From: Shigella phage sb3
Sequence record: PQ666541
Direction: 5' to 3' (one strand)
DNA: 64,000 bases
Both the position numbers and the translations under genes were made by a program. The notes beneath the pieces are model-generated. The model made no database searches. It was not told where the DNA came from and worked only from the letters and a program-made list of their open reading frames with translations. The number at the start of each line of letters is the position of its first letter. Position 1 is the stretch's first letter. Below, piece after piece: positions 46,586 through 46,966 of the stretch.

Positions 46586-46966
46586 CTACTTTTTGAAAGT
46601 TTTTCGCAAAAGTTCAATGATTTCATCTACATTGTTTTCGTCAACAATGCAGTGAATTTTTGTTACGCCAGAAACCTTGTCTTCGACTTCATCTTCTTCA
46701 GAAGTCGATTCTTTATATTCGCTGAAACAATAAAACTCTTCTTCACTAAGTTCAAAAAATCCATCATTGAGGTAAAAATGATTTCCATTAGCACATTCAA
46801 AATGATTTACCGGTTTAAATACATAATCAAAGAAAATTGATTTAACTTCAAACCAACCACCATTTTCTTGAATAATATTAGCATTTGATGAATTAGAACG
46901 TGGGCGCTAATTAATCAATGAATTAATACGATGTGGAACAAGTTTATATTTTTTACCGATTTCCAT
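46586..46966 (-). CDS. Hypothetical acidic protein (frd.2/frd.3-like) with an in-frame TAG
   Basis: ATG at 46966, 19 codons, TAG at 46907-46909, then 106 codons with no Met; not in the ORF track for that reason. Confidence 0.5.

Follow-up and report, generated by a model that had tools for sequence, protein, structure and literature searches.

The in-frame amber codon in frd.2 of the Shigella phage sb3 sequence is best explained as a consensus artefact within a blended allele

The 64,000-nucleotide stretch of the Shigella phage sb3 record analysed here (PQ666541), which we call the window throughout, raises the question of why an early gene should be broken off by a stop codon after 19 sense codons when its frame stays open far beyond that point, and whether this amber belongs to a living phage or entered the sequence on the way to the record. 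A preliminary description of this DNA, made from its letters, had reported an in-frame TAG followed by 106 further codons of an acidic gene, and translation confirmed each of these points: the minus-strand frame comprises 126 codons with TAG at codon 20, continues for 106 sense codons after the amber to a terminal TAG (46586-46588), and would encode a mildly acidic read-through product with a pI of 5.0 and 23 D+E against 15 K+R. The same description had put the absence of the gene from a list of open reading frames down to the want of a Met after the stop, and this was correct, as the sole in-frame ATG, GTG or TTG beyond the amber is a TTG at codon 120. A stop-free run of 106 codons has a chance of about 2e-4 at the local base composition, and the frame matches the Pfam FRD2 and phrog_622 profiles; for these two reasons the open frame downstream of the amber is coding sequence, and chance is ruled out as its origin.

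The interrupted gene is a homologue of T4 frd.2. Its read-through product matches the Pfam FRD2 family (PF03197), scoring 94.8 bits where the curated cut-off is 29 (E=5.3e-27, residues 30-126), and phrog_622 over residues 1-126 (E=6e-36). A tblastn search with this product found a homologue spanning the stop, at a query cover of at least 80%, in 740 of 741 phage records. The position between frd.3 and frd.1 is that of the gene annotated as frd.2 in T4 and as gp249 in Shigella phage pSs-1, and the order 32, frd.3, frd.2, frd.1, (orf81), frd, all on one strand, is shared with pSs-1, T4 and 10 further loci. Each of the ten loci with an identical frd.1 protein carries an intact frd.2 of 121-128 aa. 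All FRD2 homologues compared are uninterrupted, with a family ORF of about 119-138 codons, a rule from which the window's frd.2 departs.

Alleles of frd.2 fall into two classes, a T4 type of 128 aa and a pSs-1 type of 121-126 aa. At codon 20, which is a variable position across the family, the pSs-1-type alleles, the closest to the window, have TAT (Tyr) and the T4-type alleles have ATT, and the TAT of the pSs-1-type alleles sits in the same local string as the amber does in the window (ATTAATTAT CGCCCACGTTCTAATTCATCA). Of about 30 residues that are nearly invariant in the family, the read-through protein has lost only F17, and its C-terminal 39 residues are identical to those of pSs-1. Neither 50,697 phage records nor 5.8 billion proteins contained a frd.2 protein closer to it than about 71-76% identity.

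The expression signals of frd.2, comprising a Shine-Dalgarno-like GAGG, the ATG and promoter-like sites, look intact as far as sequence motifs can tell (Table 1). Taken literally, the sequence predicts a 19-residue peptide from frd.2 that would have no FRD2 domain. An N-terminal LSm-like fold shared by T4 Frd.2, GoF and MotB.1 has been predicted, spanning residues 1-88 in Frd.2, and the window's peptide ends before nearly all of this predicted T4 domain (PMC12152347). A restart of translation after the amber was rejected in view of the lack of an in-frame ATG, GTG or TTG before codon 120, and an ATG-initiated ORF of 25 aa in the +1 frame (46807-46884) has no support as a restart product. No RNA element of the Rfam collection matched positions 46000-47500, even at E<=1. 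Expression of frd.1 would probably be unaffected by the amber, because frd.2 is followed by a promoter-like site which, if functional, would leave the early stop with little polar effect on frd.1.

Table 1. Features of the frd.2 locus and disabling lesions elsewhere in the window.
Feature	Position	Strand	Basis or remark
frd.2 homologue (FRD2 family), interrupted at codon 20	46586..46966	-	translation, profile matches, tblastn, synteny with pSs-1 gp249 and T4 frd.2
In-frame amber TAG, codon 20 of frd.2	46907..46909	-	sequence and allele comparison
Sole part of frd.2 that would be translated as written, 19 codons, MEIGKKYKLVPHRINSLIN	46910..46966	-	translation
T4-type string TTCATTGAT, 4 nt out of register, directly 5' of the amber	46914..46922	-	k-mer offset test and painting
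Three further private frd.2 bases, all nonsynonymous	46708..46813	-	k-mer painting
Shine-Dalgarno-like GAGG, 8 nt 5' of the frd.2 ATG	46975..46978	-	sequence; kept in pSs-1, Ge15 and T4
GC-rich hairpin GGGGGCTATCACAGCCTC between frd.3 and frd.2	46987..47004	-	hairpin kept by all relatives, with small changes
Early-type promoter-like site, TTTACA-17-TACTAT with TG, 5' of frd.3-frd.2	47283..47311	-	consensus scan only
Gene 32 terminator	47344-47362	-	followed directly by the promoter-like site at 47283..47311
Second early-type promoter-like site, directly 3' of frd.2 and 5' of frd.1	46557..46585	-	consensus scan only; sequence kept in relatives
frd.3 (PF05798)	47012-47260	-	profile match
frd.1 (DUF5417)	46289-46531	-	profile match
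alt, three stops (TGA 26176-26178, TAA 25960-25962, TGA 25744-25746)	25021-27075	-	
30.3, TGG CTT to TGA TTT at 30097-30099	29875-30333	-	
30.4, start ATG to ATT, TAG 30533-30535, TAA 30446-30448	30326-30541	-	
nrdB, in-frame TAG 40983-40985	40335-41513	-	P922-type block out of register
orf81, 1-nt deletion (C after TTTT) at about 46181	46034-46278	-	the one indel relative to pSs-1 between gene 32 and frd
Gene 34, ochre TAA 51109-51111, codon 151 of 1290	50659-54528	+	

Comparison with the two allele classes revealed that the window's frd.2 is itself a hybrid. The gene has the length of its pSs-1 counterpart, and its first 87 codons switch between T4-type and pSs-type bases, even inside codons; this first two-thirds is built of at least ten short T4-type and pSs-1-type strings, some of them out of register, with displaced T4-type strings among TCATCAAATGCTAAT, TTTGATTATGTA and TTCATTGAT. 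The displacement of TTCATTGAT yields the 'private' Leu17 of the window's protein, although at 9 nt this block is weaker evidence than the blocks in alt and nrdB described below. Between 43 and 45 of the 50 differences from pSs-1 fall in exact T4-type 7-9-mers, compared with 22-35% of the differences in natural pSs-type control alleles, and when a single T4-type allele (L012) is projected on pSs-1 coordinates, 36 of the 50 reappear. Such a simple T4-type projection does not yield the G of the TAG. This G is one of four private bases called by codon-aware comparison together with k-mer painting, namely 46907 (the G of TAG), 46813 (A52P), 46723 (R82S) and 46708 (P87S), all of which alter the protein and none of which falls in the 3' third of the gene. 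The string ATTAATTAGCGCCCACG, which contains the TAG, had no match in IMG/VR against two for its TAT version, and the hybrid junction had none in viral, metagenome and genome collections with either TAT or TAG.

The neighbouring genes offer observations of their own. The dihydrofolate reductase gene frd (45450-46034, minus strand) is intact at 194 aa and combines T4-type with pSs-1-type sequence in a mosaic, and its private residues I123 and L124 lie exactly at the one-codon indel that parts the two classes. A natural-looking mosaic is also seen in frd.3, the 3' part of which equals allele L009 (GCA_044986215.1) exactly at sites where all other members of the panel differ; its longest ORF of 82 aa starts 7 codons 5' of the start annotated in pSs-1. 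The exact frd.3 and DHFR proteins of the window are not on record in a large collection, and no record in the phage collection exceeds about 94% identity over the 32-to-frd interval.

The amber in frd.2 is one of several disabling lesions in the window. Aligned with pSs-1 (NC_025829, about 101,000-165,000), the window is collinear from end to end at 96.5% identity with 5 gap openings, and it is a Tequatrovirus segment with the gene content of pSs-1, including intron-less td and nrdB. Among the 88 CDSs that have a syntenic counterpart in pSs-1, seven are disabled (alt, 30.3, 30.4, nrdB, orf81, frd.2 and gene 34), by 10 in-frame stops (3 TAG, 3 TAA and 4 TGA), one lost start and one 1-nt frameshift, and the lesions in alt, 30.4, nrdB, frd.2 and gene 34 are located where two allele classes exist. 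In alt, 432 sites distinguish the pSs-1 allele from the KMB23 allele, and the window agrees with one at 219 of them and with the other at 191, in about 70 alternating pSs-1-type and KMB23-type runs of 1-40 informative sites each and with no indel against pSs-1. Each of the three alt stops lies inside an out-of-frame KMB23-type block (12, 17 and 13 nt), and the central 1.3 kb of the gene has only about 85% identity to all 533 matching phage records. The nrdB gene is P922-like, then pSs-1-like over codons 173-197, then P922-like again; its first junction amounts to the P922 sequence with TG gained and CT lost, leaving the length unchanged at 1179 nt, and its TAG comes from a 14-nt P922-type block, ATTTACAGAACTAG, that reads 2 nt out of register. 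In 30.4, 38 of the 46 differences from pSs-1 are strings of T4 30.5 and 30.4 that occupy about 460 nt in T4 and are squeezed here to the 216-nt spacing of pSs-1. The stop in 30.3 is a private GC-to-AT dinucleotide change derived from no known allele, and the deletion in orf81 splits a conserved 81-aa ORF between frd.1 and frd into ORFs of 35 aa and 46 aa.

In gene 34, codon 151 is a sub-codon chimera, with TAA in the window, AAA in the P922 type and TTA in the pSs-1 type; the ochre borders a pSs-1-like micro-patch of 4 codons within a P922-like allele, and this micro-patch was not found in IMG/VR. The first ATG after the ochre (51172) has no Shine-Dalgarno sequence in front of it. Established T4 genetics has gene 34, the proximal tail fibre gene, as essential, and the ochre, if real, would be lethal; alt, 30.3, 30.4 and nrdB are non-essential.

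Two further differences from pSs-1 deserve mention. In gene 51, an eighth gene flagged among the CDSs, the end of which overlaps the start of gene 27, the stop TAA has become CAA (17088-17090, plus strand) and the frame ends one codon on at TGA, a benign extension by one residue. The window also has a 12-nt insertion, a tandem ATTATG ATTATG (10371-10382, plus strand), just downstream of hoc (10384-11802, minus strand), and no other indel relative to pSs-1 is as large.

Hybrids of this sort can be told from natural alleles by where the shared strings fall. Permissive-aligner gap spectra were uninformative and were replaced by a k-mer offset test, which looks for exact k-mers that two alleles have in common out of frame. 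Natural allele pairs gave none in any of three comparisons (0/22, 0/26 and 0/7), and the window gave five in alt (10-21 nt, taking in all three stops), one in nrdB and three in frd.2, those of frd.2 being short at 9-10 nt. Blending of the allele classes below the level of the codon is correspondingly strong in alt, nrdB and 30.4 and weaker in frd.2. The distribution of indels points in the same direction: over the 32-to-frd interval 171 substitutions and one indel, of 1 nt, separate the window from pSs-1, compared with 2-12 indel events in every one of the 54 natural pairs that differ by 74 or more substitutions there, and the lengths of alt, nrdB, 30.4 and frd.2 are exactly those of pSs-1. 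The ratio of transitions to transversions against pSs-1 was dropped as a detector of noise, since it is also about 1 between genuine divergent classes.

We consider that the TAG in frd.2 is best explained by a chimeric or reference-guided consensus artefact, to which the sequence comparisons lead us to give a probability of roughly 0.6, and that the amber most probably has no biological reality. In such a process, reads of one or more phages with the other allele would have been mapped to a pSs-1-like scaffold or used to polish it, with the substitutions taken over from that allele and the indels left behind; the blending would give rise to chimeric codons and out-of-frame blocks and so to spurious stops, and the real phage would carry an intact frd.2, leaving the amber without function. 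We infer a computational rather than a biological cause for the blends, and the TAG in frd.2, whose private base adjoins a class junction, would have arisen in the same way as the others. The preliminary description of a nonsense-interrupted normal early gene stands in so far as the gene is frd.2 of a T4-like phage, lies 3' of gene 32 and has closest alleles with TAT at the stop. The word normal does not survive, since strings of both classes are patched together over the first two-thirds of the gene and the window has about ten disabling lesions, the gene 34 ochre among them, and it is for these reasons that an artefact is likelier than a clean nonsense mutation. The gene 34 stop and the register-shifted blocks in the same contig also make the base calls of the hypervariable patches untrustworthy. 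Counted against an artefact are the 5 small indels of the window and its private synonymous changes in well-conserved genes, from which it follows that the sequence derives from a real, distinct phage, and a divergence that is strongly biased towards third positions, as in natural evolution. The near-invariant family residues kept by the read-through protein and the private origin of the 30.3 stop weigh on the same side. For frd.2 in particular the evidence is indirect, as its out-of-frame blocks are short and projection fails to yield the G of its TAG.

A genuine pseudogene is the main rival explanation, and we regard it as possible though rather unlikely. A wild pSs-1-like phage would have undergone a real TAT-to-TAG change in a recombinant frd.2, and the loss would have been tolerated, the gene being dispensable under the growth conditions. 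T-even genomes are naturally mosaic, parts of frd.3 match the real allele L009 exactly, and one base change separates the amber from the TAT that the closest alleles have in an identical local context. That all four private bases change the protein is compatible with relaxed constraint, yet the 3' third of the gene, free of private changes, is unlike an old, decaying pseudogene. The promoter-like site after frd.2 would probably limit any polar effect on frd.1. A T4 mutant engineered to carry an amber at the first Ser codon of frd.2, codon 16, gives equal plating on hosts that suppress ambers and hosts that do not (PMC12152347), and real inactivation is possible because frd.2 (PMC12152347 for this gene) and the four accessory genes named above are non-essential. 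Free dispensability is argued against by a CRISPRi-ART study in which frd.2, alone among the T4 genes of unknown function, was scored 'Fit' (PMC11879866). The pseudogene must also share its contig with a stop in the essential gene 34 and with register-shifted blocks of a kind never seen in natural allele pairs, and neither its allele nor its TAG occurs in any other sequence.

The blends themselves could be biological, and T4 does recombine very actively and has short-patch mismatch repair. That the hybrids are real, in the broad sense of many very short and sometimes out-of-register conversion patches from T4-type co-infecting phages, with a natural amber frd.2 among the results, seems to us improbable. 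The specific mechanism by which pSs-1-type and T4-type phages infecting one cell would undergo short-patch heteroduplex repair or gene conversion, with mispaired, out-of-register heteroduplexes repaired base by base on the length of the recipient and accessory genes inactivated, is more doubtful still. It would fit the roughly 70 alternating runs of alt, the retention of the recipient (pSs-1) length and the clustering of lesions in variable accessory genes, but it would have to create and retain a lethal stop in gene 34, the squeeze of about 460 nt into 216 nt in 30.4 would be hard to obtain from one heteroduplex, and no intermediate or similar hybrid was found in any collection. Least credible of all is functional recoding, by which the TAG would be read through, by an amber suppressor tRNA of host or phage or in a programmed manner, to give a regulated low level of full-length Frd.2. 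The codon is followed by C, a context in which termination in E. coli is relatively weak, the 106 downstream codons are open and keep family-invariant residues, and the expression signals look intact. Against this, the in-frame stops in the window are of all three kinds, TAG is a true terminator here (the genes end in TAA 56, TGA 26 and TAG 3 times, frd.2 itself included), and no relative has a stop at codon 20 of frd.2. The window contains no tRNA gene, the phage's own tRNA cluster lying outside it, and no Rfam element, and the 10 tRNAs of pSs-1 include none with a CUA anticodon. Stop-codon reassignment is excluded by the three in-frame stop types and by the use of TAG as a normal terminator.

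What the locus means depends on which of these readings is right. Until the sequence is verified, the window's stops in alt, 30.3, 30.4, nrdB, frd.2 and gene 34 should not be taken as biology. If the amber were real, nature would here have knocked out frd.2, a conserved gene whose importance is disputed, with an engineered amber that plates normally on one side (PMC12152347) and a CRISPRi-ART result of importance for fitness on the other (PMC11879866). Were the hybrids real as well, they would point to a messy short-patch mode of recombination in T-even phages and to a natural dispensability of frd.2. Whatever their origin, out-of-frame k-mers held in common with an alternative allele provide a simple test for such hybrids.

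Set beside known systems, the window's gene resembles T4 frd.2 and the FRD2 family in its profile match, position, Shine-Dalgarno sequence, upstream hairpin and downstream promoter-like site, and differs from them in its broken frame, in the hybrid character of its N-terminal two-thirds and in its four private nonsynonymous or nonsense bases. The engineered T4 frd.2am (PMC12152347) is alike in having an early amber in frd.2, one that is tolerated in laboratory growth; it was made in T4 at codon 16 by a two-base change, whereas the window is pSs-1-like and has TAT to TAG at codon 20, and with phage, codon and base change all different the possibility that the two lesions are the same was rejected. 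Phages that recode TAG or depend on suppressors likewise have in-frame TAG codons in conserved genes, unlike the window, where frd.2 has a single TAG, three types of stop interrupt genes, TAG terminates and no suppressor tRNA was seen. Error-prone phage records offer a further parallel in having several broken genes, an essential one included: the FRD2 database fragments P0027 and P0028 are normal alleles that carry frameshifts, the ESh36 record is flagged UNVERIFIED, and in phage WL-3 gene 34 and rnh are broken into many small ORFs, although the split gene 34 of WL-3 was rejected as a natural precedent, that record being simply fragmented there. In place of scattered homopolymer indels, the window shows mainly substitutions and register-shifted blends confined to hypervariable patches. 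The comparison indicates that what was found is of a kind already known either way, an assembly artefact or an ordinary pseudogene, and it points to no new mechanism.
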